64,000 nucleotides of DNA from an uncultured Actinomycetota bacterium (GTDB lineage Bacteria; Actinomycetota; Actinomycetes; JAFAQI01), in assembly GCA_963814845.1 (NCBI GenBank), contig CAWFEP010000003.1, positions 223,485 through 287,484 of the forward strand, read 5' to 3'. Below the pieces are notes generated by a model. That model had not been told where the DNA came from and did no database searches. It was given only the letters and a program-made list of their open reading frames with translations. The translations under genes were made by a program, and so were the position numbers. This document shows positions 3,159 through 29,053 of the stretch, in pieces. Every line of letters begins with the position of its first letter. The first letter of the stretch is position 1.

Positions 3159-3171
3159 GTCAACAGTTGAC
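3159..3171. promoter_or_regulatory. 13-bp palindrome GTCAACAGTTGAC between the amidohydrolase and dppD-like gene (putative operator)
   Basis: Perfect inverted repeat read directly. It shares the TGTCAAC half-site with the repeats in the locus-B promoter (28955-29053). Confidence 0.4.
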
Positions 3172-3201
3172 CATCGGCCTGACCGCGGCTCGACCGCGCT
3201 A

Positions 3202-4621
3202 CTAAACCAGGCTCGAACCTTGGTGCACGACCACGCCGTCAAGCACCGTCAGCACCACTCGAGCGTCGGCAATCGTCGCGTCCGCCTCGCCGCCCGACCT
3301 CCGGTCGAGCACGATCAGATCGGCGAGCTTGCCGATACTGAGGTCCCCGGTCTCATCGAGATGGTTGGTGTAGGCCGAGCCCGAGGTGTAGGCCGTCAGT
3401 GCCGCGTCGAGGGACATCCGTTCGGTCGGGATGAAGGCGTCGCCGGCGTCGCCGGGGAGCTCACGGTTGACTGCGACGTGGATCCCGTCCTGTGGGTTCG
3501 CGGTGCTGACCGGCCAGTCGCTGCCGCCGGCGAGGTGCGCGCCCGAACGGCGAAGGCTCTCAAACGGATACCACCACTGCGCCCTGGGCTCGCCGAGATA
3601 GATGCATTCGCGGATCATGTCCGGGCTCGCGACCTCCCAGTACGGCTGGATGTTGGCGCTGACCCCTAACGCCGCGAACCGCGGAATATCGTGCGGATAC
3701 ACCAAGCAGGCATGGGCGATCTGGTGCCGCAGATCAGACCACCCGTTGGCCCGCCTGGCTGCCTCGACCGCGTCCAGCGCATGACGCACAGCAGCTTCAC
3801 CGATTGCATGAAAGTGGACTTGGAAGCCGAGCGCATCCAACTTGGTCACGGCACTGACAAGGCGCTCTGGCTCAATGAAATCCATGCCGCAGTTGCACGT
3901 CGGAGCGCCGGTTGCATCGAACGTACGGATCCAACACCGACGCCGAGAAGTTGCCGGTCGTGCCGTCAACCATCATCTTGATCGACGTCGCCTTGAGCCG
4001 GCCGATCTGAGACGCCGCTCGACTCGCCTCGAAGCCTTCGATCTGCTCCTCGCCGGCGAGCCGCTCCCACCACAACGCCGCGGTGACCCGCGCGCTGAGC
4101 TCACCCGCCCGGCCAGCCGCTGATAGGCCGCCCATCGCTGGGATCTGGCGTTTCGCGATCGATGCCGGCCGCAGCCAGCGCGGCGCTGTTGACCCAGCCG
4201 TCGTGCCCACCGGCACTCATCAAGAACACCGGCCGGACAGAGACAACCTCGTCCAGGAATGCCTTGTCGATCGAACCGTCGATCGCGGCGACCTCCCAGC
4301 CGGAGCCGAGGATCCAGGTCTCGGCCGGGTGCTCGGTGGAGTACGTCGCGATCACCTGGCGCACCGCGTCACGGCCGACGAGGTCATGCAGGTTGCATCG
4401 CATCATCGACAGGCCACCCCAGTTGGCGTGGATATGGGCATCCTGGAACGACGGCAGCACCGCGAGCCGTTGGCATCGATGACCCGGGTGCTGGGTCCGC
4501 GGAAGTCTCGAAGCTCGTCCGCCGTACCAATCGCGACGATGCGCCCGGACCGCACCGCGACATCGGTGTACGGCGCCCGCTGCCACAGCCGGCCGTTGGT
4601 GATGAGCAGGTCAGCCGACAC
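3202..4621 (-). CDS. Amidohydrolase-3 family metal-dependent hydrolase, paralog A; at least 3 frameshifts
   Basis: Three successive frames give MSADLLITNGRLW..., FQDAHIHANWGGLS...PVFLMSAGGHDGWVNS, ...ATSIKMMVDGTTGN, and C-terminus CNCGMDFIEPERL...HFHAIGEAAVRHALDAV...GGSDWPVS. It closely resembles the intact paralog at 24292-25920. Confidence 0.75.
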
Positions 4622-4635
4622 AACTCGCCCCTGGT

Positions 4636-5310
4636 TTAACTCGCGGAACCTTCAGCCGGCTTCGGGACCGACAGCCTCGCCGCGGAGGCATCCATGTGCA
4701 GCAGCAGAAGCTGATCCACGCCCTCGGCGTCGCCGGCGGTGATCGCGTCGAGGATCGCCTGATGCTCGGCCGCGACCTCTTCTCCGGTCTCGTAGAACGG
4801 CTCGAGCCGCTGCAGGCACAGCCGCGTCTCAGCGATCAGGGTGTGAAACATCCGGGTCAGCCGCGGGCTCCCGGCGGCATCGACCAACGTCTGGTGAAAC
4901 TCGAGGTCGTGGCTGATGAGCTCCATCCACGACCCGCCGGAGGACTCCGACATCGTGTTCGCGATGCGCTGCAGCTCCGCCAGTGTCTCGGGCGGACGCT
5001 GTTGCGTCACGATCGCCGCTGCCGCGCGCTCGACCGCGCCTCGGGCGAGATAGACATCCCTCGCGTCGTCCTGGTCAAGCTGCACGACGAAGACGCCGCG
5101 ATTGCGCTCTGCGCGCAACAAGCCTTCCTGGATCAGTCGTTGCATCGCCTCGCGGATCGGCCCGCGGCTGATCCGCAACTGGCGGGAGAGCTCAACCTCG
5201 GACAGCTGCGCATCGGGCGAGAAGTGACCCTCGAGAATCTCCGAGCGCAACTGGTCGGCAATCAGTGCGGGCGTGCTTTGCAAATGAAGCGGCTCGAGGT
5301 GACTGGGCAT
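4636..5310 (-). CDS. GntR-family transcriptional regulator (FadR/FCD subfamily)
   Basis: wHTH motif LSEVELSRQLRISRGPIREAMQRLIQEGLL plus a C-terminal FCD-like helical domain. Start chosen at MPSHLEPLHL; the track start at 5409 overlaps the upstream gene. Confidence 0.8.
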   Translation of the reverse strand: MPSHLEPLHLQSTPALIADQLRSEILEGHFSPDAQLSEVELSRQLRISRGPIREAMQRLIQEGLLRAERNRGVFVVQLDQDDARDVYLARGAVERAAAAIVTQQRPPETLAELQRIANTMSESSGGSWMELISHDLEFHQTLVDAAGSPRLTRMFHTLIAETRLCLQRLEPFYETGEEVAAEHQAILDAITAGDAEGVDQLLLLHMDASAARLSVPKPAEGSAS

Positions 5311-5405
5311 CAACGTCCCCCTGCTCGACGGAAGCTCACTCGGCCACTTGATCGAATGTGGACAACTGTACAACCACGAGTGACGCGTCCGGTCGCAAAT
5401 CAACG

Positions 5406-6776
5406 TCACGCCAGCAACTCGCCGACGATCTCCTCAAACACTGCCGTGTGAACGTCGATCTGGTCGGCGGTCGTCGCCGGTGACATCAGCGCCATGTTGT
5501 GGAACGGCGTCAGCAGCACACCCCGGTTGAGCATCGCGAGGTGAAGCAGCCCGTCGAGATCCTCATCGTCCGCAGCGGCCGCCTCGGCGCCGTTGCGTGG
5601 CGGCGAGGCGACGAACAGATATTCGGCTCGGCAGCCGAGCCGCGTGACGTGCCACGGCGCGTGATGAGCCGCGATCACCGACTCGATGCCGTCGCAAAGC
5701 CGCACCGCAAGAGCTTCCATCGTCTCGAATGCGGAGTCGGTCAGCACCTCGGACAGCGTCGCTCGCGCGGCCGCCAGCGATAGCGCGTTGCCGGCCAAGG
5801 TGCCACCGACGCCCCCGACGTCGGCCTCATGCCAGAACGTCTGCTCGACGATCGACGCCGCGACTGCATCACTCATCCCGTACGCCGCGATCGGCACACC
5901 GCCCCCGATCGTCTTGCCGATCGTCAGGAAGTCAGGCTCCAGCCCGTAGCGAGCGGTGTAGCCACCCGGCCCCGCGCAGATCGTGTGCGTCTCGTCGATG
6001 ACCAGCAGCGTGCCGGTCTCGCGGGTGATGCGGCGCAGTTCGCGGTGGTAGTCCTCGTCCGGCAACACGATGCCGATGTTGGTCAACGCCGGTTCGACCA
6101 ACACCGCCGCGACTTGGTGGTCCGACAGTGCCTGCTCGAGCGCGACAAGGTCGTTGATCTCGACCACACGTGTCGACTCCGTGACGTCGAGCGCGGGACC
6201 GACGCTGCCAACTCGAGCGATCACCGTCCCGGAAGCATCGAGGGACGCGACCGTCTCGTCGACGGAACCGTGGTAGCACCAGTTATGCACCACGATCTTG
6301 GACCTGCCGGTGATCTGGCGGGCGAGTCGCAGCACAAACCGGTTGGCGTCCGACGCGGTAAGGCAGAACTGCCAGCGCGACATACTGAACCGGCGAGCCA
6401 TCTCCTCCGCCACCCAGATCGCGTCCTCGGTGGGCAACATGAAGGTCGCGCCCTGACTCATCTGCGCCGCAATCGCGTCGACGACCGGCTGTGGGCCGTG
6501 GCCCGCCATCGCCCCGGTGTCACCGAGACACAGGTCGACGTAGGAATTGCCGTCGATGTCGGAGACCTCGGCGCCATGAGCTGAGGCAACCACGATCGGA
6601 CTCGGGCTGGCCCACCGTGTCATCCAGTTCATCGGTACGCCATAAAGCATTGAGCTTTCGGCCCGCCGGCGAAAATCGACGGACTTCGGGTGGGAGGCCA
6701 CGAAGCGCTCCCGCTCGCGGTCGAGCATTGCCTTGACCCGCACGCCATCGACGCCCGTCGTGGAGTTCGCCGCCAT
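5406..6776 (-). CDS. Class-III (ornithine/GSA-type) PLP-dependent aminotransferase
   Basis: 456-aa intact ORF with motifs DETHTICAGPGG, TIGKTIGGGVPIAAYG and GTLAGNALSLAAARATL, typical of aminotransferase class III / GSA-aminomutase-like proteins. Confidence 0.8.
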   Translation of the reverse strand: MAANSTTGVDGVRVKAMLDRERERFVASHPKSVDFRRRAESSMLYGVPMNWMTRWASPSPIVVASAHGAEVSDIDGNSYVDLCLGDTGAMAGHGPQPVVDAIAAQMSQGATFMLPTEDAIWVAEEMARRFSMSRWQFCLTASDANRFVLRLARQITGRSKIVVHNWCYHGSVDETVASLDASGTVIARVGSVGPALDVTESTRVVEINDLVALEQALSDHQVAAVLVEPALTNIGIVLPDEDYHRELRRITRETGTLLVIDETHTICAGPGGYTARYGLEPDFLTIGKTIGGGVPIAAYGMSDAVAASIVEQTFWHEADVGGVGGTLAGNALSLAAARATLSEVLTDSAFETMEALAVRLCDGIESVIAAHHAPWHVTRLGCRAEYLFVASPPRNGAEAAAADDEDLDGLLHLAMLNRGVLLTPFHNMALMSPATTADQIDVHTAVFEEIVGELLA

Positions 6777-6778
6777 GC

Positions 6779-7441
6779 CTATTCGCCTTCCTGCGATGTC
6801 GTCAGATGTGCTGCGCTTTCGGCCATGTGGGCATGCACCAGCTCAGTAATCAGCGCCGGATCATCGCCGCGAATCGCCTCGACAATGGCGCGGTGCTCCT
6901 CGATCAGCGAGGCACGATCGTCGTAGTAAGCCTCGAGGGAGGACAAGCACAGGCGGGTCTGGGCGTAGAGCGGCTCGAACGCCCGGTTCAGCCGCTCGCT
7001 GCCGGCGCCGCTGACCAAGCACCGATGAAACTCCAGGTCGAGGACGACCACCTCGGGCCAATCACGGTCGATCGCTTCCTCGAGCCTCGCCAGGATCGCG
7101 TCGAGTGCGCGCAAGGCAGGTTCGTCGCGGCGTTCGTTGATCCGCAGTGCGGCCGCCTGCTCGACCACTTCGCGTGCGAAGTAGACGTCGCGAATGCTCT
7201 CGTCATCGAGCGCGACGACAAACACGCCCCGATTGCGTTCCCGACGGAGCAGGCCCTCGTGGATCAGCCAGGTGAAGGCATCGCGGATCGGGCCTCGGCT
7301 GACGTTGAGCTCATGGGCGAGCTCGACCTCGTTGAGCTGGGAGTCAGGCGGAAACTTGCGCGCGAAGATCCCGGCCCTGATCCGGGCCGCGACGACTGCC
7401 GGCGTGCTCTCGACCTGAATCGGCGCGAGTTGGCTCGGCAT
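6779..7441 (-). CDS. GntR-family transcriptional regulator (FCD), paralog of 4636-5310
   Basis: LNEVELAHELNVSRGPIRDAFTWLIHEGLLRRERNRGVFVV is highly similar to the other GntR here. Confidence 0.8.
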   Translation of the reverse strand: MPSQLAPIQVESTPAVVAARIRAGIFARKFPPDSQLNEVELAHELNVSRGPIRDAFTWLIHEGLLRRERNRGVFVVALDDESIRDVYFAREVVEQAAALRINERRDEPALRALDAILARLEEAIDRDWPEVVVLDLEFHRCLVSGAGSERLNRAFEPLYAQTRLCLSSLEAYYDDRASLIEEHRAIVEAIRGDDPALITELVHAHMAESAAHLTTSQEGE

Positions 7442-7468
7442 ACTGCAGATTGTCGCACAACACTGCAA

Positions 7469-8650
7469 TCAGACAATCAGACTCATCGGCATGTCGGACT
7501 GAGCCGGGCGTGGTTCGACCTCTCGCATCCGCCAGATCAGCGGCAGTGAGCAAATCAAGAGTCCCGAGATCGCCGCGGCGCCCACGAATGGCACCCACGG
7601 CCCGATCCCGAACAGCACGCCACTGGCCGCCGCGGAAGCAGCCATGGCAGCAGTTTGGGTCGCGTTCGACAGACCTTGGGCCCGGCCGAGCGCCGTCGCG
7701 GGCACGCTTTGGGCCAGCAACGACTGCGCCGCCGGGTAGGCGACCGCTACCCCGATCGACTCCACCGCACCCAGCCCGATCAACAACGGCAGGTAGTGCA
7801 GGTACGGATAGAGCGCCGCGAAGAAGACCGAGGACGCGAGCGCAGCGACCGTGAGCTTCGCCCGGTTGAAGCGATCCGCCATGCGCCCGGCCAGCGGGGA
7901 GAACGCTGCGAACGGCGCGGCGAACAGCGTCCACGACAACCCGACCTGCCAGGCGTGTGCGCCGCGCAGGTCGAGCAACAACGTCCAGCACGTCTCGTAC
8001 ACACCAGTGATCAGCCCGCCGATCAGCCCGGTGATCACGACTCCGAGCAGGAGCCGGTTGACGACGAGCCGGGTCCGCACGGCGTCGCGGGTGCTCGCCA
8101 CTCGAGGCAAGCTCGAGAGCACCCAAATGCTCGCGATTGTCGACGTCGCGGCCGTCACGACAAAGAGCACACCCATGCCGGAGATCCCCGCAATGCTGCC
8201 GGCGAGTGGACCGATCGCGGCGCCACCAAGCTGGCCAGCAAACAGCATCGAAAAGGCTCGGCCGCGACGATCGGCAGGCACTGCGGCACCGACGAGCGCG
8301 AACGACGCCACCTGCACTGCGCCGGCGCCAGCTCCCTGCGCGCCGCGCAACAGGATGTAGCCACCCGCCCCCGGGTGGAGCAGAAAGCCAAGGCTGCCCA
8401 GCGCATAACAGAGCAACCCACCGACCAGGATCGGGCGATGGCCGATGCGATCGCCGAGATGCCCCAACGGATATTGCACGACCAGCCCGGCGACGAAGTA
8501 CGCCGACATGACCAGGCCGACAACTCCGGTCGAGCTGCCGTGGTGGCGCAGGTAGGCAGGCAACAGCGGCAGGATCGCGCTGGCACCCAACCACTCGATG
8601 AACGCCGTCCCGGCCAGTACAAAGATGAAGCGGCGCGCAGTGCCAGTCAT
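7469..8650 (-). CDS. MFS transporter
   Basis: 393 aa with about 12 predicted TM helices and the MFS motif GHLGDRIGHRP. The overlapping 474-aa Arg-rich ORF in another frame is an artefact. Confidence 0.8.
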   Translation of the reverse strand: MTGTARRFIFVLAGTAFIEWLGASAILPLLPAYLRHHGSSTGVVGLVMSAYFVAGLVVQYPLGHLGDRIGHRPILVGGLLCYALGSLGFLLHPGAGGYILLRGAQGAGAGAVQVASFALVGAAVPADRRGRAFSMLFAGQLGGAAIGPLAGSIAGISGMGVLFVVTAATSTIASIWVLSSLPRVASTRDAVRTRLVVNRLLLGVVITGLIGGLITGVYETCWTLLLDLRGAHAWQVGLSWTLFAAPFAAFSPLAGRMADRFNRAKLTVAALASSVFFAALYPYLHYLPLLIGLGAVESIGVAVAYPAAQSLLAQSVPATALGRAQGLSNATQTAAMAASAAASGVLFGIGPWVPFVGAAAISGLLICSLPLIWRMREVEPRPAQSDMPMSLIV

Positions 8651-9204
8651 CGCCCGAGGTCCTCAAGAAACGCGGCGACCTGACCCCGAAGCGGCTCGGC
8701 CAGCGGGGCAAATCCGAACAGCTCGACGAGCCACATCCCGTCGGCGGCCAGCCGAGCGACGGTGGCACGCACCGGGTCGACGCCGTCGGACGTCAGCCGG
8801 TCTTGCCAACGGTCGAAAGAGCGGCGCAGCGGCTCGAGCAGTTGCGGCTCGCATGCCATGGCCGCGAGCACTGCGGCCCCCGCGCGCTCGCGCCTGACAT
8901 CTTCCGGCGTGCGGGACGGACGAACCGTGGCTCGGACATAGGAGCGGACATAGCGGCCGGACGCGGCCGCGTCGGTCGTCGCATCGGCTGCGCTCTCGTC
9001 CATGAGCTCGCTGTCGAAGGCTGCGACCAGTCGCTCGACCATCGCAGAAACGAGGGCGTCGCGGGTGCCGAAGTGGTAGAGCACGCCGCCCTTGCTCAGC
9101 CCGGCCTCCGCCGCCGCGGCATCGAGGGTCAGCCGAGACACGCCGTCCCGGATCACGATGCTTTCGCAGGCATCGAGGATCCGGTCTCGGGAGTTAATGG
9201 CCAC
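8647..9204 (-). CDS. TetR-family transcriptional regulator
   Basis: N-terminal HTH LTLDAAAAEAGLSKGGVLYHFGTRDALV. It overlaps the MFS gene by 4 nt, consistent with an operon. Confidence 0.85.
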   Translation of the reverse strand: MAINSRDRILDACESIVIRDGVSRLTLDAAAAEAGLSKGGVLYHFGTRDALVSAMVERLVAAFDSELMDESAADATTDAAASGRYVRSYVRATVRPSRTPEDVRRERAGAAVLAAMACEPQLLEPLRRSFDRWQDRLTSDGVDPVRATVARLAADGMWLVELFGFAPLAEPLRGQVAAFLEDLGR

Positions 9205-9244: not shown

Positions 9245-11752
9245 TTATACCGGGTCGAGCTGCCAGCGATGACTCTCGGCGATGAGCTGGCCGAGCTGCG
9301 CTGCCGGCATCGGCCGGGCGAGGTAGAAACCCTGGGCACGGCGGCAGCCGAGCCGCATGAGGTTGTCGAGCTGGCCATGAGTCTCGACGCCCTCAGCGGT
9401 GACCTCCAGCTCGAGCGCAGAGGCCATCGCGACGATCGCCGCCACCAGCGCGGAGTCGTGCGGATCGCCGCCCAGACCGTCGACGAAGGCACGATCGACC
9501 TTGACCGCGTCGACCGGGAAGCGCTTCAGGTAGCTCAACGATGAGTAGCCGGTGCCGAAGTCATCGATCGCCAGCCGGACACCGAGTGCCTTGAGGCTCT
9601 CCAGCGTCCACCGCGAGGACTCCACATCGTCCATCAGCACGCTCTCGGTCAGCTCAAGACACAAGCTCTCAGCGCGGGCGCCGGTCCGGAGAAGCACATC
9701 TCTCACGACGGACACGATGTCCGGTGCGCCGACCTGGCGGACCGAGAGGTTAACAGCGACCGACATGGTGATCTGGGTGTCCTGCCACTCGGCAAGCTGG
9801 GCACACGCCTGCTCCAGGACCCAGGCACCGATCGGCACGATGAGGCCGGTTTCCTCGGCGATCGGGATGAACTCCTCCGGGCTGATCGACCCGCGCACAG
9901 GGTGATTCCAGCGAAGTAACGCCTCCGCGCTCACCATGGCGCCGGTCGTGAGATCGATAATCGGTTGGTAGTGAACCGTGAGCTCTTGCCGGTCGATCGC
10001 ATGCCGAAGTGATGAGGCCGTGGCCAGATGCTGCGCGGCCTGCGCGCGCACCGCATCGTCGAACAACGCAATCTGGCCAGCGCCAGCAGACTTAGCGCGG
10101 TGCATCGCCGCGCCCGAGTCACGAAGCAGCGATTCAGCGGTCGCGTCGTCGTCGGCGACCGCGATGCCGACACACGCGGTCATGTCCACGTCGTGGATCC
10201 CGATCATGCCTGGCTGGCTCAGCGCGAGGAGGACGCGTCTCGCAACGGCTTCGGCTCCCAGCGGCGTGATGTCGTCGCAGACGACCACGAACTCGTCACC
10301 GCCAACCCGCGCGACCGTGTCACCTGGCCGGATCGCCTCGGAGATCCGGTCCGCAGTAAGCCGTAAGAACGCATCGCCGACTGAGTGGCCTAGGGAGTCG
10401 TTGACGCCTTTGAAGTGATCGACATCCAGAAACAGCACACCAAGCTGAGAGCGGCGCCGGCGCGAACCGGCGAGGCTGTGAACGAGCCGGTCGTTGAGCA
10501 GCGCGCGGTTTGCCAGACCGGTGAGCGGATCGTGCAGCATCTGATGCGCAAGGTCGTCCTCCACCCGCTTGCGCCCGGTGATGTCTTGCAGCTGGACAAA
10601 GAAATACCTGTACGCGCCTGCTTCGTCTCTGACCACCGTGACGTGGGTGGACGCCCAGATGTCCGTGCCGTCTGGCCGGGTGAACCGACGTTCATCGGCA
10701 TAGGTGTCACGACCAATGGCAGCGCCGGCCAAGACCTGGTCCCACAACGGCGGATCGTCGTCGTGCGCGTTGCTCACCCATGGAGTGCTCGTGAGTTCCT
10801 CGGCGCTCTTGCCGAGCAGCGTGCAGATCGCCTGGTTGGCCCGTGTCGGCACCCCGTCGAGATCGACGATGGCCGTACCGATCGCGGCCTGTTCGAAACC
10901 AACCTCGAACTGCGCCTCCGCGGCGCGCCGAACGGCTTCAGTGGCGATTCGGTCGGTCTCGTCCATCACCGTGCCAATGATCTTGACGACGGTGTCGCTG
11001 TCTACGGTCTCCGCTGTCATCCGCAGCCGAAGGCTGCGGGGTGTGCCGTCTGCCCGCGCGATCCGGAACTCCACGTCGATGTCCGTGCCGAGGCTTTCCA
11101 CCGCGCGCCAAGCATCACCGACGATCGGCACGTCGTCCGGATGCGCCATCGCCGAGAGCAGGTCCTTGCCGAGTTCGGTGCCGATCGGAAGACCAAGGAT
11201 CCGGTAGAACTCATCCGAGCGTGTGCGTGCACCGGAGACGAGGTCATGCTCGAAGCTGCCGATGTGGGCGATCTGCTGCGCCTCTGCGAGCTGTCGCTGG
11301 CTCGCCTCCAACGCCCGTTGGTCGTGACGCCGATGACTGATGTCGTGGGCGATCATCGACAAGCCGGTCACAGTCCCAGCAGCGTCGACGATCGGGGATG
11401 CCGTGAGCACAACTTCCACCAGGCTGCCGTCCTTGCGGCAGCGGGTCGTCTCGATTCGTTGTGCCGGACCGCCCGAGGTCAACGTCATTCGCATCTGCGC
11501 CTGTTCAGCGACCAGCAGACCTGGCGCGAGGAGCGACACCGGTTGTCCGATGGCCTCCGCAGCCGTGTAACCGAACAACTGCTCGGCTGCGGTGTTCCAG
11601 CTAGTAATTTCGCCTTCATTGGACACGCCCAGAATGGCATCGCCCGACGTCTCGACAATTGCCGCTAGCTGACGGCGAGCCTGCTCGCCAGCCTCAGGTC
11701 GCCGCCGATCATGGAGCGGCTCGCGCTCAGCGCGCAACAACCGGCCGATCAT
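9245..11752 (-). CDS. PAS/PAC sensor diguanylate cyclase/phosphodiesterase (PAS-PAS-GGDEF-EAL)
   Basis: 835-aa intact ORF with GGDEF motif [12 protein letters not shown] motif EALLRW and multiple PAS blocks. Confidence 0.9.
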
Positions 11753-12804
11753 GTGATCGCCTGTCGCGGCTCTGGTGCAATCACGATTGACGTTGCTGCC
11801 GTCCCGTTGAGGACAGCGGTCGGCTGATCGAGAGCCGATTCCCCACCAGCGAGCTCGACCCGGTTGCGACCGAGCCGCTTGGCGCGATACAGCGCTTCAT
11901 CCGCTTCCTTGAGAACCTCGCTCGCCGAGGTTCGGCGGTCCGGATCAAGAATCGCAATTCCCCCGCTGAAGGTCAGTACGCCGTGGGGATTGCCCGGGTG
12001 CGGGATCGCGAGTGACTCGATGCCCGAACGCATGCGTTCGATGGCCTGCCGCCCGGTCTCGATCGATTGTTCGGTGAAGATGCACAAGAACTCTTCGCCG
12101 CCGTAGCGATAGATCGAGTCGCCGCTTCGCAACAGTGCAGTCAGCTCGGCGGCAACGGTTTGCAAGATCTCGTCACCCGCCTGGTGACCGTAGCTGTCGT
12201 TGTAGGACTTGAAGTGATCGACATCGAGCACGGCCATGCAATAGCGGTGGCCATAGCGGCTGACTCGCGCCTCGAGGATCTCGAGGTCCTCGCTGAGAGC
12301 TCTGCGATTCGGCAATCCGGTCAGCGCATCGCGGCGCGCGATCGCGGTCAACTCGATGTTTCGCTCACCGAGTTGTTCGACCGACTGCTGGGCGGCACGC
12401 GCCTTGGTGGCCAGCGCCTCAGCCTGGCGGTAGAGGTTGGCAAACACCGACACCTTCGCGCGCAGCTCATTCGGTGGGACCGGAGCAAAGATGAAGTCCA
12501 CCGCACCCTGGGCGTAGTGATCGCCATGCGCGACTTCGTCGCGGTCGTGAGCAGTGATGAAAATAATCGGAGTCATCTCCGACTGCCGACGTTCCCTGAT
12601 AAGTGCGGCGGTTTCGAAGCCATCCATTCCCGGCATGATCACGTCGAGCAATATGACAGCGAAGTTCTGCACCATGAGACATCGAAGCGCCTCCATCCCG
12701 GACGCGGCTTCGACCACCGCATGACCGAGCGGCGCCAGCACCGCCCGGAGCGCAAAGCGTTTAGATGCGTTGTCATCGACCAACAAGATCGGTACGGATG
12801 ACAT
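11749..12804 (-). CDS. Response regulator receiver fused to GGDEF diguanylate cyclase (PleD/WspR-like)
   Basis: REC domain ILLVDDN...DVIMPGMDG, then coiled linker, then GGDEF motif [11 protein letters not shown]. It overlaps the downstream gene by 4 nt. Confidence 0.9.
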
Positions 12805-12813
12805 GAGGGACCG

Positions 12814-15784: not shown

Positions 15785-16117
15785 TGGTTCCGCGGGGAGG
15801 GCGACAGGCAGGCTGGGCGATGGGCATAGGGCGTCCGTTCTAGCGTTGTCGGGCTAGAGCGACAGCGGTCCGGGCTCTCGGGAGAGTGCTTCGACACGCC
15901 CACCCCTGAACTGATGCTTTCTGGTTATTCCGAAACCGTGAGCGTCAGGGAGGCTTAGAGGGTCTGGCGCAACATTACTCGCGATCTTGGGATCGCGAGC
16001 GTGCGACAGGGACAGGTTCTCCGATTTTTCCGCGCAAAACGCATCAGTTGGGCGGTCAGGTTGTCGAAGTTCACCGCAGAGCCTGGAACCGTTGCTCTAG
16101 CCCGCCACCGCTAGATC

Positions 16118-16599: not shown

Positions 16600-17039
16600 C
16601 TCGGCGCGGGAACGTTCAGCGCGCGAACCACGAGCTCGGCGCTCTTGCGGTGGACCTTCGGGATCTCGAACTCCCACTGACCGCCGCCGACGAAGCCGAT
16701 CTTTAGCGCTGCCTTGAGCATGCCGCCGTCGAGCTCAACCGAGGTGATCTGGTCGCGCGGTGCCCGCGCAATCACCTCGTTGCCCACGCTTGGCTTGAAT
16801 GCGCCAGATTTGCCCTTCACGATTGCCAGCTCGGTGCCGGTGACAGCGACATAGCCGAGGGAACCGAACGGCGGTGCCCCGCCCTCGCCCACCATGGCGT
16901 TGACTGCAGCGCGTCCCGCAACGCCGGCGACCATGCCCGCCGCTGTAGCGCCGGTCATCTTCTTGGTCAGACCCTTCGGGCTGACGAAGCAGCCGGCGAC
17001 CTCGGCCGAACCCAGCGCCTCACTTGCATCTGCCGCCAC
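16596..17039 (-). CDS. Hypothetical protein
   Basis: 147-aa ORF with protein-like composition and no recognisable motif. Confidence 0.5.
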   Translation of the reverse strand: MAADASEALGSAEVAGCFVSPKGLTKKMTGATAAGMVAGVAGRAAVNAMVGEGGAPPFGSLGYVAVTGTELAIVKGKSGAFKPSVGNEVIARAPRDQITSVELDGGMLKAALKIGFVGGGQWEFEIPKVHRKSAELVVRALNVPAPS

Positions 17040-17211
17040 GATTTTCCCCCTCGATCCGGTCGCTATCCGGTGCTGAGTTTCACAGCAACTGCGGATATCG
17101 CCAAATTGCCAAGATCAAAGTCATCGCGCTCCGCACCTTCAGCAGGACGCTCGCGCGGTCGATGACATTGCGAGGCACGCGTCGTCGCCTCTGTGTAACG
17201 ACGGCCGCCGG

Positions 17212-21671: not shown

Positions 21672-22598
21672 TTAGTGAGTGAGTGCCGCATAGGCCGTGG
21701 CGACCTCAGCGCCGAGCCGGGCGTTGTTGTTCACCAGCGCGATGTTGGCGGTAAGGCTGGCGCCGTCGGTGAGTTCCACGATCCGACGAAGCAGGAAGGG
21801 GGTGGCCTCCTTGCCGTGAATACCGCTGGCGTTCATCTCCTCGATGGCGTGCTCGATGATGCTGTCGATCTTCTCGGCGGGTATCTCGTCGGCAGTGGGG
21901 ATCGGGTTGGCCAACACAATGCCGCCGCCGATGCCGAGCTCCCACTTCGTCGCCATGATCGCGGCAATCTCGTCGGGAGTGTCGACGCGTACCGGCGCCT
22001 GATGCCCGCTGGTACGGGAGAAGAACGCGGGGAATTCATTCGTGCGGTACGCCAGAACTGGCACCCGCAACGTTTCCAGCGCCTCCAGCGTCAGTCCGAT
22101 GTCAAGAATGCTCTTCACTCCGGCGGAAATCACCGCGACGTCGGTAGTGGACAGCTCGGTGAGGTCGGCGCTGACATCGAGGGTGCGGTGACCGCCGCGA
22201 TGAACACCGCCGAGACCGCCGGTGACAAACACCCGGATCCCGGCGAGAGCCGCCAGCCGCATCGTCGCGGCGACGGTCGTCGCGCCGTGGCCGCCACTTG
22301 CGATGATGACCGGGAGGTCGCGCACACTGACCTTCGCGACCTCGGGGCTTGTCGCCAGCAGCTCGAGGTCCGCCGGCTCCAGGCCGATGCGTGGCGAGCC
22401 GCCCAGCACGGCGATCGTCGCCGGCACGGCGCCGAGGTCCCTGATGACCCGCTCCACGCCGGTCGCCATCTCGACGTTCTGCGGGTAGGGCATGCCGTGG
22501 CTGATGATCGTGCTTTCTAGCGCGACCACAGCGGCGCCATCTCGCAACGCTTGCGTCACCTCGTCGGTCACGACGAGAGAAGGGTTCCGGGTGGGCAC
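21672..22598 (-). CDS. psuG: Pseudouridine-5'-phosphate glycosidase
   Basis: Motifs ALESTIISHGMPYPQNVE and GGLGGVHRGG are typical of the PsuG / IndA-like family. Confidence 0.85.
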   Translation of the reverse strand: MPTRNPSLVVTDEVTQALRDGAAVVALESTIISHGMPYPQNVEMATGVERVIRDLGAVPATIAVLGGSPRIGLEPADLELLATSPEVAKVSVRDLPVIIASGGHGATTVAATMRLAALAGIRVFVTGGLGGVHRGGHRTLDVSADLTELSTTDVAVISAGVKSILDIGLTLEALETLRVPVLAYRTNEFPAFFSRTSGHQAPVRVDTPDEIAAIMATKWELGIGGGIVLANPIPTADEIPAEKIDSIIEHAIEEMNASGIHGKEATPFLLRRIVELTDGASLTANIALVNNNARLGAEVATAYAALTH

Positions 22599-22607
22599 AG
22601 GGTCTCC

Positions 22608-23749
22608 TCAGTGTGCGGCGGCTAAGGCGGTCTCGATGAGCCGCGGCGTGAGATCAGGGCGGACCGTGTGCGGACTAGCGAGGGTCAACACCGCGGCCGC
22701 CTGACCGAAGCGGGCTGCCTCGATCGGTTTCCAGTCATTGAGCACGGCGTAGCAGAACGCGGCGAGCATCGCGTCGCCCGCACCGGTCACGTCCTCAACC
22801 GCGGCCGCCATGGCAGCCTCCAACCACACCGAGCCGGACGAGGCAGTGCTGAACAGCGATCCTTGGGCGCCGAGGCGTACCCAGACATGTTCCACTCCGC
22901 GCCGATGCAGGCTGTCGGCTGCCTTGTGGAGTTGTTTATCGGTACGCGTGGAAAGCCCGGTCAGTGCTGCGAGCTCATCGCGGTTGGGGGTCACCGCGTA
23001 CAACGGCCGGTCCGCCGTAATGTACGACGCGATCAACGCCGCCTTGGGCACGCTGACCGGCTCGAGGATGGTGCGAACGTTGGCCGCCGCGGCGAGGTCG
23101 GTGGCATAGGTGAGCGCCGACATAGCAAGATTCCCATCCAGGACAAGCAGGCCCGCGGTCGTGATGACGTCGCGGGCCTCGTTGATCGGCCCTGGCCCAA
23201 GGGCGCCACCGCCGCCATGTCGGCAACGGCGACAATCAGTTCGCCGTCGCTGTCGAGCACGGCCGTATAGGTGCCGGTGGACAGCTCGGTGCGCTTCACG
23301 TACTCGCAGTGAACGCCGGCCGCAACAGTCTGGCCCAACAGCGTGTCGCCCAACGCGTCGCGACCAATCGCGCTGACGAGGAAGGTGCGCACCCCAAGGC
23401 GCGCAAGGTTTTCCGCGATGTTGCGACCTACCCCGCCAGGAGTCATCGAGGCCCAACCCGGGTTGCTGGTCGCCGGCCTGGCCCGATCGGTGCTACGAGC
23501 TTTGACGTCGACGTTCGCGCCGCCGATGACGACGGCTCCCGGCCGGTCGCCAAGGATGTAACCCCGGCCGAGGATGACGCCCTTCTTGCCGAGATTGGAC
23601 AAGTGCACATTGACCGACGCCCGAGAAGTGCCGAGCCGCTCGGCGATCGCTTCGGAGCCAATAAGTGGATCGCGGCGCAACATCTCCACGATCTCGCGTT
23701 CTCGCTCCGTCAAGCTCACGTTTAGCAGGCTAAGTCGGGCTTGTGACAA
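22608..23749 (-). CDS. HTH-fused PfkB-family carbohydrate kinase (pseudouridine kinase-like); 1 frameshift near 23225
   Basis: N-terminal wHTH ERLGTSRASVNVHLSNLGKKGVI. PfkB motifs VVIGGANVDVKA, GGVGRNIAENLARLG and DVTGAGDAMLAAF are split across two frames. Confidence 0.75.
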
Positions 23750-24291: not shown

Positions 24292-25920
24292 TCAGCCGGC
24301 GGCTTCGAGTTGAGGGTCCTCGTGGACGGCTATGCCGCCCTGCAGCGTCAGCAGCACCTTGGTGTCTGCCAGTGCGCCGGGATCGACGGCACGCAGATCA
24401 CGGTCCAGCACGACGACGTCGGCGAGCTTGCCGATCGTCAAATCACCGGTCTGCTGCTCGAGATGGTTGACATATGCCGCGCCTGAGGTGAACGCACGCA
24501 CCGCCTCGGTCACCGAGATCCGCTCGTGCGGCAGGAACGAGTCCATGTCATCGCCCGGCAGTACCCGGTTGACCGCGACGTGCATCTCGCTGAACGGGTC
24601 CGGTGTGCTGACCGGCCAGTCGCTGCCACCCGCCAGCCTGCCGCCGGCCGCCCGGATGCTTTCGAACGGATACCACCAGTTTGAGCGCGGATCACCCAGA
24701 ACCCGGCTCTCGCGAACCATGTCCGGGCTGGCGGCGGCCCAGAGCGGCTGAATGTTGGCACTCACGTCGAGCGCAGCAAACCGGGCGATGTCATCGGGGT
24801 GAACGAGACAGACATGCGCGATGTGGTGGCGTCGATCGGACCAGCCGTTCGTTCGGCGGGCTGCCTCCACCGCGTCGAGCGCGCTGCGAACTGCGCCCTC
24901 GCCGATCGCGTGCATGTGCACCTGGAACCCGGCTGCGTCGAGCTTGGTGACCGCGCTTTTGAGCGCGTCCGGCTCGACGAAGTTGATCCCGCAGTTGCAG
25001 GTCGGCAGGCCATCTGCGTCGAGATATGGCTCGAGTAACGCGGCACTCCCGTTGCCGGTCGTGCCGTCGACCATGATCTTGATCGAGGTCGCCTTCAGCG
25101 TCCCGATGAACGAGTTCGCTCGGCTTTCGATGAACCCGTCGATCTGCTCCTCGCCGATCAGTCGGTCCCACCACAGCGCGGCGGTCACCCTCGTGGTTAG
25201 CTCGCCTCGACCAGCCAGCCGTTGGTAGGTCGCCAGCGCCTCGGGTGTGGTCCACGCGTCCTGCCACGCCGTGATGCCGAACCGATGTAAGTACGCCTGT
25301 GCGTTCAGCATCGCCGCCTCAGTGCCGGCGTCGCTCTCGATGGGCGCGACTCGTTCGGCAAACCGCACCGCGCCCTCGTGAAGCAGGCCATTGGGCTCAC
25401 CGTCGCCGTACTTCCCGATCCGACCGTCAGGCGGGTCTGGATACGTCGCGTCGATGCCCGCCATCTTCAGCGCGATGCTGTTCACCCACGCGTCGTGCAG
25501 GCCGGCGCTCATCAGGAACACCGGCCGATCCGCAACGATCGCATCAAGGAACCGCTTGTCGAGCCATTCTTCGGAGGTGTCTTCTTCCCATCCGAATCCC
25601 ATGATCCAGTCGGTGTCCGGATGATCGGCGGCGTACGACCGTACCCCCGCTGCGAGCGCCTCTGGCCCGGTCGCGCCGTGAAGGTTGCACCGCGACATCG
25701 CGAGCCCGGCGGGCAACGGGTGAACGTGAGCGTCCTGGAAGGCCGGAAGCACACTACGGCCACGCGCATCGATCACTCTCGTCGACCGACCGGCCATTTC
25801 ACCGAGCGCGTCGTCGGTGCCGATCGCAATGATGCGATCCCCCGTGATGGCGAGTGCGGAGTACGGCTCCCGACCCCATAGGACCCCGTTGGTCACCAGC
25901 ACGTCCGCGTCCACGTACAC
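24292..25920 (-). CDS. Amidohydrolase-3 family metal-dependent hydrolase, paralog B (intact)
   Basis: 542-aa ORF with FQDAHVHP, GFQVHMHAIGEGAV and GGSDWPVS. It is a close paralog of 3202-4621. Confidence 0.85.
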   Translation of the reverse strand: MYVDADVLVTNGVLWGREPYSALAITGDRIIAIGTDDALGEMAGRSTRVIDARGRSVLPAFQDAHVHPLPAGLAMSRCNLHGATGPEALAAGVRSYAADHPDTDWIMGFGWEEDTSEEWLDKRFLDAIVADRPVFLMSAGLHDAWVNSIALKMAGIDATYPDPPDGRIGKYGDGEPNGLLHEGAVRFAERVAPIESDAGTEAAMLNAQAYLHRFGITAWQDAWTTPEALATYQRLAGRGELTTRVTAALWWDRLIGEEQIDGFIESRANSFIGTLKATSIKIMVDGTTGNGSAALLEPYLDADGLPTCNCGINFVEPDALKSAVTKLDAAGFQVHMHAIGEGAVRSALDAVEAARRTNGWSDRRHHIAHVCLVHPDDIARFAALDVSANIQPLWAAASPDMVRESRVLGDPRSNWWYPFESIRAAGGRLAGGSDWPVSTPDPFSEMHVAVNRVLPGDDMDSFLPHERISVTEAVRAFTSGAAYVNHLEQQTGDLTIGKLADVVVLDRDLRAVDPGALADTKVLLTLQGGIAVHEDPQLEAAG

Positions 25921-25992: not shown

Positions 25993-26009
25993 GTGCTTTC
26001 GCCCGCGGG

Positions 26010-27122
26010 TCAGCCGCCGGACGCCTTAACGTCCTGCCACAACTGGGTCCACGCCGCGTTGTCCGCCGGCGTGCCGAATGTCGCAGCACTGTGGTACTTG
26101 CTGATGTTGTTCTGTCCCGAGCGGGCGAGCACCGCCGACGACAGCGACGCTACCGACCTCTTGTTCGAAACCAGATAACTGAAGCTCTTCGCCTGCACGT
26201 CCTGCACCAGCGGCGACAGCGCATAGTTGAGATACGCATAGACCGCGTTCAGGTTCCCTGCGTGCGCTCCGATCGAGTACCCGCACGTCCATGCGAGCGG
26301 CGGATCCATCGGCGCGAACGCGATGTCCTTGCCCTTCAACTCATTCACCAGGGTGATGTCGATTGGCGTGATGTCGACCTCGTCATTCGCCCACAGGGTG
26401 TTTATCGCTGAACCCTGGTAGTAGGTAACGACGTGTGGCTTCTGCGCGATCAGGAGCTTCTTGACGTTGCTCAGCTGGGCCGGGGTCATCGACTGCGGCG
26501 GGAAGTAGCCGAGCGCAAGACCGGCAACGATGATGTTGTCCAGCGGGTCATCGGGCTCGGTCACCCGCTTGTCCGTCGTGAACAAGTCCATCCAGGACGT
26601 CGGGGGCTTCGGGAACGCGGAGGGCCGGTAGACCAGGCCGTAGGCACCACCGACAAGCGGCAGCATGTAGATCTTGCCACCGACATCGACACCCTTAATC
26701 TTCTTGAAAAACGGATAGATCTGCTTCCAGTCGGTGATTCGCGAGGTGTCGATCGGCTGGAGGTCGCCGTTCTCCCGCTCCTGGTCGATCGGACCGGCGC
26801 AGGTGTTGACGACGTCGGCTTGGAAGCCGGCCTTCAACTTCGCAACCCCCTCCTCATCGCTGGAAATGTCCGCCTTCTCTACCGATACTTTGGGGTACTG
26901 CTTATTGAAGTTGTTGAAGACGGCAGGCGCGAACGCGTCGTCATAGGCGAAGATCGTCAACTTTCCTGAGACCTGCCCGGACGCCGCCGTCGAGGTGCCG
27001 GTTGGCGCCGACGGCGAGCCCGCGGGAGCAGCGGTGCTGCCCGATGAGGAACACGCGCTCGCAACGGCAAGCATCGCGACTGCAAGCGCACCTACTCTGA
27101 CTTTCATTGGGGGTGATGACAC
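26010..27122 (-). CDS. ABC transporter substrate-binding lipoprotein, PotD/PotF (polyamine-type) family
   Basis: Signal peptide with lipobox LAVASAC; the length and composition fit an SBP_bac_1/PotD-type protein. Confidence 0.8.
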   Translation of the reverse strand: MSSPPMKVRVGALAVAMLAVASACSSSGSTAAPAGSPSAPTGTSTAASGQVSGKLTIFAYDDAFAPAVFNNFNKQYPKVSVEKADISSDEEGVAKLKAGFQADVVNTCAGPIDQERENGDLQPIDTSRITDWKQIYPFFKKIKGVDVGGKIYMLPLVGGAYGLVYRPSAFPKPPTSWMDLFTTDKRVTEPDDPLDNIIVAGLALGYFPPQSMTPAQLSNVKKLLIAQKPHVVTYYQGSAINTLWANDEVDITPIDITLVNELKGKDIAFAPMDPPLAWTCGYSIGAHAGNLNAVYAYLNYALSPLVQDVQAKSFSYLVSNKRSVASLSSAVLARSGQNNISKYHSAATFGTPADNAAWTQLWQDVKASGG

Positions 27123-27178
27123 GCCGTTCTCCTCAGTTGTGATTCGTTCGCACGGTTGTTGAGTGCTTCACGCTCGGC

Positions 27179-28057
27179 TCAGCTGCCATACGCCCGCCGG
27201 GATATCCGTTGGGCCGCCGTGATCAGCACCACGGCGATGACGAGCAGCAACGTCGCACCCGCGGCAGCCGCGGGCCAGTTGCCGACCTCGAGCAACTGGT
27301 CGCTGACCAGGTTTCCCACCATCAGCGAGTTTGGGCCGCCAACGAGCTGCGGCGTCGCGAACTCGCTGAGCAGCGGGACGAACACCACGATGAACGCGCC
27401 GAGGATGCCAGGCGCGGACATCGGCACAATCACGTTCCGCAGCACCGCAAACGGGCTGGAATACAGGTCCTTGGCCGCCTCGAGGAGGCTGCGCTCGATC
27501 GTTCGCATCGCCGCGTAGATCGGAATCACGACGTACGGCAGCCAACCTGCGGCCAGCACCAGAACGACGGCAAGACGACTGAAAAGGATCACCGTGATGG
27601 GGCTGTGGATAATGCCGAGCTTGAGCAGTCCTTCGTTGAGAATGCCGTGATAGCCGAGCAACGTGTACCAAGCGAAGATTCGCACGATGTCGCTCACACT
27701 GCCGGAGATGATGAGAATCAGCAGCACGGGGAGGTGGGATGACCGCTTCATCTTGAACGTGATGATGTAGGCAAGCGGGTAGCCGATCAGGAGCATCGCC
27801 ACGAAGGTGATTCCGGCGATCGTGAACGACTGACGCAGGATCGGAAGCAGATCTCCTTGCGACAGCATCTGGCTGTAAGCGCTCCACCAGTGACCGTGAG
27901 CGGGCCGCACACTTCGCACGAGCAATGCGAACAGCGGCACGTAGAAGAACGGCAGAAGGAACAGCATGCCGAGCGGGGTCATCGCGACAGCGACCCGCTG
28001 GATCCGGTTCAACCCGGGCCTACGGCGGGGTGCCGAGACCGTCACCGCTAGAGCCAC
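27179..28057 (-). CDS. ABC transporter permease (PotB/PotC-type)
   Basis: 6-TM permease with an EAA-like loop EAAKDLYSSPFAVLRNVIVP. Confidence 0.8.
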   Translation of the reverse strand: MALAVTVSAPRRRPGLNRIQRVAVAMTPLGMLFLLPFFYVPLFALLVRSVRPAHGHWWSAYSQMLSQGDLLPILRQSFTIAGITFVAMLLIGYPLAYIITFKMKRSSHLPVLLILIISGSVSDIVRIFAWYTLLGYHGILNEGLLKLGIIHSPITVILFSRLAVVLVLAAGWLPYVVIPIYAAMRTIERSLLEAAKDLYSSPFAVLRNVIVPMSAPGILGAFIVVFVPLLSEFATPQLVGGPNSLMVGNLVSDQLLEVGNWPAAAAGATLLLVIAVVLITAAQRISRRAYGS

Positions 28058-28866
28058 GACACGTCATCCCCATCACGACGGGTGAGCAGGTACACCAGCC
28101 CGAACACGATCACCGTGATTGCGAGCATCACTGTCGATGCCGCGTTGACGACCGGAAGGTCCTGCGCGTGACGAAGCGAGCTGTATGCCCACACCGGGAT
28201 CGTGACGTTGTAACCACTGACGAAGAAGGTGACGACGAAGTTGCCCAGTGAGGAGATGAAGGCGAACAATCCGCCCACGATGATCGGCGTGACCAGCTGC
28301 GGCAGAACTACTCGGCACAAGACGCCGACCCGGCCCGAGCCGAGGTCGAAGGCGGCTTCTTCCACCGACTCTGACATGCCGGCGAGGCGGGCGTAAAGGA
28401 TCAGCGTGATCAGCGGGAAGGTAACGACGACCTGCATCACGATCACGGTCAGGGTCGAGGCCTGTACCCCAATCGTGGTGAAGAACAACAGTCCGGCGAC
28501 GCCGATGACCAGCCACGGCACGACCAACGGGATGCTGAAGAACCCCAGGCACAGACCCTTCCAGACGCCGGTGAGGCGCGCGGCCGCGTAGGCACTGGTC
28601 AGCCCGGTCAGGATGCAGATCGGCGTGACGATCGCGGCTACCAGCATCGAGCTCTTGAACGCCTGGACCGCGTCCGGCTCGTCGACCAGCGCATGGAACC
28701 ACTCGAGACTGAAACCGGTGAACGGCAGGCTGATCGTGCCCGCGGAGTTGAAGGAGAAGAGCAGCAGGACAGCAAGTGGCGCGATGAGGATCAGGAAGCA
28801 CAACCCGACATAGAGGCGCGCGAGCAGGCCCATCCCTCCAGCCCTGCGCGGCGCCCTTCGCATCAC
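28048..28866 (-). CDS. ABC transporter permease (PotB/PotC-type)
   Basis: 6-TM permease with EAA loop EEAAFDLGSGRVGVLCRVVLP. The start may lie downstream at MGLLARLY. Confidence 0.8.
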   Translation of the reverse strand: MMRRAPRRAGGMGLLARLYVGLCFLILIAPLAVLLLFSFNSAGTISLPFTGFSLEWFHALVDEPDAVQAFKSSMLVAAIVTPICILTGLTSAYAAARLTGVWKGLCLGFFSIPLVVPWLVIGVAGLLFFTTIGVQASTLTVIVMQVVVTFPLITLILYARLAGMSESVEEAAFDLGSGRVGVLCRVVLPQLVTPIIVGGLFAFISSLGNFVVTFFVSGYNVTIPVWAYSSLRHAQDLPVVNAASTVMLAITVIVFGLVYLLTRRDGDDVSWL

Positions 28867-28954
28867 GAACCTCCTCGCGCCCGTTTTCGAGGTGACGCAG
28901 CGGGCCCCGGGACCGACGGCGCGACGGGCGCGTCATCCGCCCCCCAGGCAAGTC

Positions 28955-29053
28955 TTGTCGACATACCTCCGTGCGAATTGTCAACAACCTAGGTCTCGAG
29001 CCTGCATAGGTCAAGAGTATCCGCCGATATTCCTACAAGCAGGTTGTTGACAA
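28955..29053. promoter_or_regulatory. Divergent promoter region with three TGTCAAC-type sites
   Basis: The sites are TTGTCGACA (28955-28963), TTGTCAACAACCT (28978-28990) and its exact inverse AGGTTGTTGACAA (29041-29053). The region lies between the permease operon and the potA-like gene. Confidence 0.45.

Follow-up and report, generated by a model that had tools for sequence, protein, structure and literature searches.

A TKGT-NN-ACMA palindrome at two amidohydrolase and ABC transporter loci of an uncultured Actinomycetota bacterium: candidate operators of an FCD-type GntR repressor

The operators of the FadR subfamily of GntR regulators follow the consensus NyGT-Nx-ACNy, with TKGT and ACMA boxes and extra half-site boxes at 7 to 12 nt (PMC4494728). 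Several described systems offer points of comparison. In Escherichia coli, the FCD-type GntR protein DgoR acts at several inverted repeats over the promoter of a catabolic and transport operon (PMC7674646). HypR of Streptomyces coelicolor, the FCD-type GntR repressor of hydroxyproline utilization, autoregulates via a site over its own −10 and also acts in trans on scattered genes for catabolism and for peptidases (PMC6608401). Corynebacterium glutamicum carries two functionally equivalent GntR paralogues per genome, GntR1 and GntR2 (PMC2230225). Here, we analyzed a 64,000-nucleotide stretch of DNA from an uncultured Actinomycetota bacterium (GenBank assembly GCA_963814845.1, contig CAWFEP010000003.1, positions 223,485 to 287,484), which we refer to as the window. 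Two loci in the window, A and B, each combine an amidohydrolase with an ATP-binding cassette (ABC) importer and share a short palindrome in their control regions. We consider it likely that these palindromes serve an FCD-type, FadR-subfamily GntR repressor as operators. A locus A protein that we call GntR1 is the best candidate, and its paralogue GntR2 would probably use the same boxes.

Both regulator genes are on the minus strand of locus A, with GntR1 at 4636-5310 (224 amino acids) and GntR2 at 6779-7441 (ATG at 7441). The two proteins are 47% identical. Pfam finds a GntR winged helix-turn-helix domain in each (PF00392, E = 3e-16 for open reading frame 4636-5409 and 1e-12 for open reading frame 6779-7468, both above the gathering score) as well as an FCD domain (PF07729, E = 5e-25 for GntR1 and 6e-24 for GntR2). 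Domain content, operator shape, and predicted autoregulatory sites agree in placing both proteins in the FadR subfamily, FCD branch, of the GntR superfamily. The recognition helix SRGPIR, the wing RNRGVFV, and the residues D135, H139, H183, and H205 are invariant in GntR1, GntR2, and five orthologues. These last four residues are compatible with a putative metal-containing ligand pocket; in TM0439 and HypR, the metal of the FCD pocket is ligated by three histidines (PMC6608401). Because its DNA-contacting residues are identical to those of GntR1, GntR2 probably recognizes the same boxes. As in C. glutamicum, two paralogues are present here, and their identical recognition residues suggest overlapping targets. 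The C. glutamicum regulon, gluconate and glucose uptake, is different, however, and the genes here share one cluster.

The closest named model for both proteins is PhnR (TIGR03338), which covers their full length, but the scores of 136.2 and 126.6 bits are far below the equivalog cutoff of 271.5. PhnR is associated with the PotABCD-like aminophosphonate transporter PhnSTUV as well as with an aminotransferase, a gene content that resembles the one seen here. However, we saw no phosphonatase or C-P lyase genes here, and the neighbors of the GntR1 orthologues are instead an enolase paralogue, a glycerate 2-kinase, an amine oxidase, and aminotransferases. Similarity to the characterized FCD members is low, and the best solved structure is 2hs5, an uncharacterized Rhodococcus GntR protein (E = 2e-21). 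A literature search on the literal motif and on the PhnR operator surfaced no described regulator with this motif among the papers that it listed, short of their full texts.

A first-pass annotation of this DNA had pointed to a TGTCAAC/GTTGACA palindrome at both loci, and every string that it cited was recovered at its coordinates when the sequence was read out. The palindrome GTCAACAGTTGAC (3159-3171) lies between the amidohydrolase and the dppD-like gene of locus A. In the divergent control region of locus B are TTGTCGACA (28955-28963) and the pair TTGTCAACAACCT and AGGTTGTTGACAA (28978-28990 and 29041-29053). This pair had been called an exact inverted repeat, and the repeat search indeed returned 13-nt arms with 100% complementarity and 50 nt between them. 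The element ATTGTCGCACAAC, described as preceding the GntR gene at 6779-7441, is at 7449-7461, 8 nt upstream of the start codon at 7441. Two further sites were found, one being an inverted pair at 981-1007 and the other lying at 5357-5364, before the first GntR gene.

The motif had been expected to stand out by its density. The bare heptamer TGTCAAC does not, with 7 copies in the window against an expectation of 5.3 ± 2.9, but its placement is strongly nonrandom. All four copies of TGTCAACA in the 64 kb are within the control regions of the two loci. In bases 1-35607, of which 7.5% is intergenic, six of seven TGT-NN-ACA sites are inside the 550 bp made up by four control regions (947-1051, 3066-3201, 5311-5405, and 28867-29080), and the remaining 2.1 kb of intergenic DNA contains none. 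When k-mers were counted without bias in these control regions, GTTGACA/TGTCAACA ranked first. The sequence GGTTGTTGACA occurs exactly twice, and there was no further match with fewer than one mismatch. We regard it as very improbable that the likeness between the loci is due to chance or is a relic of the duplication that gave rise to the two amidohydrolases, which are 64% identical. The unenriched heptamer would fit with chance, as would our own estimate of about one or two 6+1+6 palindromes expected in a few kilobases of intergenic DNA. Chance does not explain sites that are concentrated by position, conserved across genomes, and recovered by a matrix trained on foreign sites (see below), and the transporters of the two loci belong to different families (Dpp type and Pot type), so the control regions are not duplicates of each other.

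Conservation was examined by comparing locus B to its orthologues, whose proteins are 57 to 89% identical across the compared genomes. The closest available genome is that of an uncultured Actinomycetota metagenome-assembled genome (MAG), L001 (proteins 66 to 89% identical), in which locus B is syntenic and is followed directly by the orthologue of the locus A permease. Synteny of locus B extends to Marmoricola (L003) and Nocardioides bigeumensis (L060). In three to four other genomes, the sites of the orthologous control regions are retained between diverged flanks. Between the window and L001, the conserved blocks of the divergent control region are AGTTGTCAACA; CTCTTGACC-17 nt-CCTAGGTTGT; ACAATTCGC; and ATGTCGACAA, with diverged stretches between them. 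The three sites of the window, termed O3, O2, and O1, begin at 28955, 28978, and 29044 (spacing of 23 and 66 bp). Their counterparts are at 6901, 6967, and 6990 in L001 (66 and 23 bp) and at 6975, 7044, and 7067 in Marmoricola (69 and 23 bp), and the O3-O2 distance is 23 bp in all three genomes. The potA-proximal site, as (A/G)(G/A)TTGTCAACA, is conserved in L001 and Marmoricola and is also present in N. bigeumensis. In the latter genome, four to five copies of GATTGTnnACAATC are found in 21 kb, and they precede an amine oxidase/aminotransferase/M20 operon, the locus B orthologue, a dehydratase, and a divergent pair consisting of an APH-aminotransferase fusion and an LD-carboxypeptidase.

Within these sites, the TGT and ACA arms are invariant, while the central dinucleotides vary (CA/CC/AA and CG/CG/AG). 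Because of this pattern, the recognized unit is most likely the whole 8- to 10-bp palindrome (T/C)TGT-NN-ACA(A/G), or TKGT-NN-ACMA, rather than a TGTCAAC half-site. Of the motif first proposed, the GntR-like shape is retained and the TGTCAAC half-site is not; TGTCAAC-N(1-3)-GTTGACA would match the site at 3159 alone. As half-sites of fixed-spacer inverted pairs, the TGTCAAC arms would be separated by 1, 9, or 50 nt, and orthologous sites keep TGT/ACA with a changed center. A second candidate unit, GTTGT-N10-ACAAC, suited the site upstream of GntR1 and the enolase operon sites described below but failed at locus B. The window sequences TTGTCAACAA, TTGTTGACAA, TTGTCGACAT, CTGTCAACAG, and TTGTCCACAT match the TKGT/ACMA consensus of the FadR subfamily (PMC4494728). 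Like the DgoR-controlled promoter, the window has several inverted repeats over predicted promoters of catabolic and transport genes. In contrast, the HypR motif, CTNTGC(A/C)ATGTCAC, lacks symmetry and bears no relation to TKGT-NN-ACMA, and the pathway also differs (PMC6608401).

The link between the palindrome and GntR1 comes from other genomes. The exact 224-amino-acid GntR1 protein is on record (P0001), and a homologue search returned 3492 proteins, many of them about 70% identical. We collected about 30 contigs bearing GntR1 orthologues (60 to 78% identical). Upstream of the orthologues, 16 of 27 distinct regions contained the strict pattern TKGT-N4-TTGT-NN-RCA, and a 12-sequence alignment showed no variation at its TGT and CA positions. 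The operon beside the orthologue carries (A/G)GGTTGTTGACATTCC at its −35, as seen by eye at 14 loci with further matches elsewhere. In a Mycobacteriales MAG (L148), the element beside the orthologue, CAGGTTGTTGACAATCCGCAC, is nearly equal to O2 of the window, TAGGTTGTTGACAATTCGCAC, over about 20 nt. P0073, which is the GntR1 orthologue of the closest genome, adjoins dppD/dppF and is about 25 kb from the locus B orthologue on the same contig. The operon next to GntR1 orthologues opens with an enolase paralogue and a glycerate 2-kinase (DUF4147 and MOFRL domains) at L100, L092, L145, L147, and L148, and it often adds an amine oxidase, class III aminotransferases, an FGGY kinase, or a Dpp-type ABC transporter. 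A gene set of this kind suggests a pathway that ends in glycerate, 2-phosphoglycerate, and phosphoenolpyruvate (PEP).

We then built a position weight matrix (PWM) solely from nonwindow sites, taken from loci with GntR1 orthologues, and scanned it over the window. The top hit was O2 (28975, 18.5 bits), followed by a coding position (24749, 15.4 bits), O1 (29041, 15.1 bits), the site upstream of GntR1 (5353, 14.8 bits), the 981-1007 pair (994, 14.7 bits), the site before dppD (3154, 14.1 bits), and a second coding position (13358, 13.6 bits). Thus, the predicted operators account for five of the six best hits, and seven hits reached at least 12 bits, compared to 2.2 expected. The Pfam map agrees that locus A has two paralogous GntR genes and locus B has no regulator gene, the arrangement that had led the first-pass annotation to propose one regulon over both loci, controlled in trans from locus A. 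This proposal gains support because the same motif precedes GntR1 orthologues and is found on the neighboring operon; the foreign-trained PWM and the conservation across genomes point the same way.

These sites could instead belong to a different factor, such as the TetR protein at 8647-9204 or one whose gene lies outside the window, but we consider this unlikely. No GntR gene adjoins locus B in the window, L001, Marmoricola, or N. bigeumensis, as this alternative would have it. The TetR gene forms a pair with an MFS gene further upstream of GntR2, and this pair precedes the aminotransferase cluster in both the window and the Mycobacteriales MAG. The order TetR, MFS, and aminotransferase is found at 7469-9204 in the former and at 1325-4481 in the latter, with GntR2 inserted before the aminotransferase in the window. 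However, the motif accompanies GntR1 orthologues at loci where no TetR was called nearby (L145 and L147), it is directly upstream of GntR1 genes, the usual mark of autoregulation, and its shape is that of the GntR/FadR consensus. A TetR regulator usually acts on the efflux gene beside it, and this also counts against a role for this TetR protein.

The sites of locus B were also placed relative to predicted promoters. On the minus strand, this locus comprises the amidohydrolase (Amidohydro_3, 24292-25920), a solute-binding protein gene (SBP_bac_1, 26010-27122), and two permease genes (27179-28057 and 28048-28866). A potA-like ATPase gene (29081-30244) and an M20 peptidase-family deacylase gene (30249-31355) are transcribed divergently on the plus strand; all were assigned by Pfam. 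Exact-protein look-up of the permease encoded at 28048-28866 and of the potA-like protein gave no matches. The actinobacterial −10 pattern is TANNNT, and we proposed promoters on the basis of TTGAC(A/C), TANNNT, and conservation across genomes. The predicted permease-side promoter (28986-29014, minus strand) has a −35 of TTGACC (29014-29009) and a −10 of TAGGTT (28991-28986) with a 17-nt spacer. Both hexamers are identical in L001 at the same 17-nt spacing, and the spacer sequence has diverged. On the potA side (29047-29083, plus strand), a putative −35 of TTGACA (29047-29052) is 16 nt from a −10 of TAGTCT (29069-29074), and with the ATG at 29081 the potA-like transcript may be leaderless. The counterparts of this promoter are TTGACA-N16-TAGGGT in Marmoricola and TTGACA-N19-TACCCT in L001.

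The three predicted operators of locus B are distributed over both promoters. O1, TTGTTGACAA (29044-29053), is part of one 13-nt arm and overlaps the potA-like −35, with GTTGACA at 29046-29052 including the predicted hexamer TTGACA. O2, TTGTCAACAA(CCT) (28978-28990), is the other arm and spans the permease −10/+1, the AGGTT of the 13-mer being the conserved predicted −10 box. Therefore, these operators overlap predicted promoter elements. At the O2 position, L001 has TTGTCCACAA and Marmoricola has CTGTAAACAG. O3, TTGTCGACAT (28955-28964), would be at about +17 to +24 of the permease transcript; in its region, ATGTCGACAA is identical in L001, and CTGTAGACAA is found at the equivalent position of Marmoricola. 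A 12-mer within O3, TGTCGACATACC (28956-28967), recurs at 38064-38075 in a region of lower codon bias. That copy has a PWM score of 9.8 and could be another operator or a chance match.

Because several sites contain TTGACA, we asked whether the strings could simply be strong sigma-70-type −35 hexamers with their flanks, that is, consensus promoters with no dedicated regulator. At the potA-like and dppD promoters, TTGACA is indeed 16 to 17 nt before TANNNT, the operons beside GntR1 orthologues share this layout with 18 nt, and these promoter geometries are kept in L001, L003, and L085. However, the same 11- to 12-mer is at the −10/+1 of the permease promoter, which has its own conserved TTGACC-N17-TAGGTT. 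Moreover, some position-conserved sites lack TTGACA altogether, namely O3 (TGTCGACA), the L001 and Marmoricola variants TGTCCACA, TGTAAACA, and TGTAGACA, and the GntR1-upstream TGTGGACA. Conservation reaches 3 to 5 nt past the hexamer on each side, and TTGACA occurs in no other intergenic region of bases 1-35607. A scan of 28850-29100, 3060-3210, and 940-1060 for E. coli-type promoters (at least 4 of 6 matches per hexamer, 9 of 12 overall, spacing of 16 to 18 nt) was empty and reported none of the promoters proposed here. Taken together, promoter function alone is an improbable explanation for the sites, and we favor operators that overlap promoters.

In locus A, all of the genes are on the minus strand. 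From the permease end, these are a dppB-like permease gene (1-942, start at an in-frame GTG at 942), a dppF-like gene (1052-2101), the N-terminal part of a dppD-like gene (2484-3065), the amidohydrolase (Amidohydro_3, 3202-4586, spread over three frames), GntR1, a class III aminotransferase gene (5406-6776), and GntR2, each recognized by Pfam. The predicted dppD operator (3154-3172) consists of TGTCAACA (3158-3165) overlapping the palindrome GTCAAC-A-GTTGAC (3159-3171) and reads TGGTCAAC/TGTTGACA on the gene strand. GTTGACA at 3158-3164 includes the −35 hexamer of the putative dppD promoter (3135-3163, minus strand), which consists of TTGACA (3163-3158), a 17-nt spacer, and TACTTT (3140-3135). 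The region upstream of the dppD orthologue in L085, a locus of the same genome as L001 (contig CAVYQE010000001.1), retains GTCAACAGTTTACAATCG and has TTGACC-N17-TACTTT at the equivalent position.

Both regulator genes have predicted sites of their own. Upstream of GntR1 is GGTTGTACAGTTGTCCACATTCG (5353-5375, minus strand), of the form TKGT-N4-TTGT-NN-ACA, with a core that reads TGTGGACA on the plus strand (5357-5364). The elements upstream of GntR2 (7449-7478, minus strand) are GATTGTCTGATTG (7478-7466) and TTGTGCGACAA (7460-7450), as read on the gene strand, and the latter overlaps a putative −10, GACAAT, 7 nt before the ATG at 7441. These elements are kept before the GntR2 orthologues in L091, L107, L109, and L138. 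In L092, which lacks GntR2 at this place, the same elements are before the aminotransferase. A 10-mer, CAACACTGCA, follows the TGTC core both at 990-1002 (reverse strand, within the 981-1007 pair) and at 7457-7467 (the GntR2-upstream site), and the recognized sequence may extend beyond the core, given this shared 10-mer.

The remaining site of locus A is the operator pair ACTGTCAAC-N9-GTTGACAGT (981-1007), which fills part of the gap from the end of the dppF-like gene (stop at 1052) to the permease start (942). In L001, GACTGTCAAC-N9-GTTGACAGTC precedes the permease orthologue (81% identical); the arms are unchanged, the spacer has diverged, and another gene lies upstream. Inverted pairs could also act as RNA stem-loops, for example as an intercistronic stabilizer, a processing site, or an attenuator, and this applies mainly to 981-1007. 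It is located between two codirectional genes, and its hairpin has a predicted energy of −21 kcal/mol (z = −2.9), compared to −17.7 kcal/mol (z = −2.3) for the L001 counterpart, in which the arms are conserved and the loop has diverged. However, the arms are identical in both genomes, so there are no compensatory changes, and the arm sequence is the same motif that occurs at sites that do not pair. The 3159 palindrome would leave a 1-nt loop (z = −0.17), and O1 and O2 flank predicted divergent transcription start sites and cannot pair. There is no terminator-like site; intrinsic terminators (a G+C-rich stem with a T run) were absent from 28850-29100, 3060-3210, and 940-1060, and no Rfam family matched in bases 1-32000. 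Thus, we find an RNA role distinctly unlikely as a general explanation, and a hairpin is possible for 981-1007 alone.

Several observations weigh against a GntR repressor as the reader of these palindromes. We assigned the regulator to the sites by association. The strict pattern is missing in 11 of the 27 regions upstream of GntR1 orthologues, and 6 of these are without any TGT-NN-RCA. The distance from GT to AC is 2 nt here, whereas 3 nt is typical of the FadR subfamily (PMC4494728). A tblastn search found a GntR1 or GntR2 homologue within 10 kb of the amidohydrolase at 0 of 80 related loci; because of this result, the regulator could not be tied to locus B by adjacency. With its short PWM, the scan has a null maximum of about 14 bits on average, and coding DNA accounts for two of its seven best hits. 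Several sites hold TTGACA at the expected −35 position, and part of the site conservation may be due to promoter function. Finally, the 981-1007 pair could form a stable RNA hairpin and overlaps no recognizable promoter; we looked for a convincing −35/−10 pair downstream of it and upstream of GntR1 and found none at either place.

With these points in mind, we propose a model in which we infer the binding protein, the repression, the transcription starts, and the ligand. Without inducer, a repressor dimer on O1 would cover the −35 of the potA-like/M20 promoter. On the divergent permease/SBP/amidohydrolase promoter, O2 would be occupied over the −10/+1 and O3 near +20. In locus A, the repressor would occupy the dppD site, which covers the predicted −35 and extends slightly upstream of it, the pair before the dppB-like permease, and the sites at the promoters of the GntR genes themselves, leading to autoregulation. 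Occupancy of these operators would block RNA polymerase. Binding of a small-molecule ligand in the putative metal-containing FCD pocket would then release the repressor, and both uptake systems, both amidohydrolases, the M20 deacylase, the aminotransferase, and the regulator genes would be induced jointly. The induced set would serve catabolism of a nitrogen-containing compound.

The sites are often paired with an extra TKGT box 8 bp away or with a second site 14 to 23 bp away. The near-fixed spacing at locus B (23 bp and 66 or 69 bp), together with the recurrence of TKGT boxes every 8 bp, could reflect a higher-order GntR assembly, looped or tetrameric and perhaps a GntR1/GntR2 hetero-oligomer, that shuts both divergent promoters at once. 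Combined with this would be an undescribed pathway, widespread among soil Actinomycetota, for the uptake of an N-acylated compound or one of amino-alcohol type and its breakdown to glycerate, 2-phosphoglycerate, and PEP. Such a pathway could employ the YtcJ-like amidohydrolase, the M20 deacylase, the amine oxidase, the class III aminotransferases, the APH-aminotransferase fusion, the glycerate 2-kinase, and the enolase paralogue. We offer this extended scheme, assembly and pathway together, as speculative and rather doubtful.

In kind, the proposed GntR repressor and its operators are an ordinary, well-known arrangement. The analysis provides a predicted, testable regulon for an uncharacterized GntR/FCD family that is common in soil Actinomycetota. 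In this genome, the regulon would bring together both ABC importers, both YtcJ-like amidohydrolases, the M20 deacylase, and the aminotransferase. With the enolase paralogue, glycerate 2-kinase, and amine oxidase to which the regulator is linked in relatives, this gene set narrows the search for the substrate. The operator model, a 10-bp TKGT-NN-ACMA at the −35, at the −10/+1, and at about +20, could be used for annotating related genomes.

While inspecting locus A, we noted frame breaks in some of its genes. The dppD-like gene breaks frame after 193 amino acids in the window, while four sibling metagenome contigs (99.1% identity) have an intact 324-amino-acid dppD. There are 8 to 9 single-base indels per 4.6 kb relative to the siblings, and the frame breaks of the locus A amidohydrolase and of dppD coincide with such indels. 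The amidohydrolase is likewise called in pieces in the sibling contigs. For the region 2100-4610, long-read indel error, genuine decay, or a combination of the two would fit, and the frame breaks may be sequencing errors rather than pseudogenization. Two motif sites were compared with a sibling contig, and neither the site upstream of GntR1 nor the dppD operator differed from the window.

Other features of the window were recorded along the way. A Pnkp/Hen1 RNA repair pair adjoins locus B (31517-35607) and consists of a PNKP ligase/kinase/phosphatase gene and a Hen1_L-methyltransferase gene. At 9245-18753 is a dense c-di-GMP and two-component cluster that encodes PAS-GGDEF-EAL, response regulator-GGDEF, response regulator, HisKA, HAMP-GAF, and dCache-GGDEF proteins. 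A pseudouridine-5'-phosphate glycosidase-like gene (Indigoidine_A) is found beside an HTH-PfkB kinase fusion at 21672-23749, and the kinase region of this fusion seems to be split over the overlapping open reading frames 22608-23456 and 23033-23749. The G+C content rises from about 0.64 to 0.70-0.75 over 52000-64000, and this shift could mark a boundary in composition, for example the edge of an island or a join in the assembly. Lastly, 39192-42176 contains a tandem duplication of about 1.83 kb, with 300-nt blocks at 39192/41020 and 40048/41877 that are 98 to 99% identical, and because of this duplication identical TGTGGACA 20-mers are present at 39472 and 41300.

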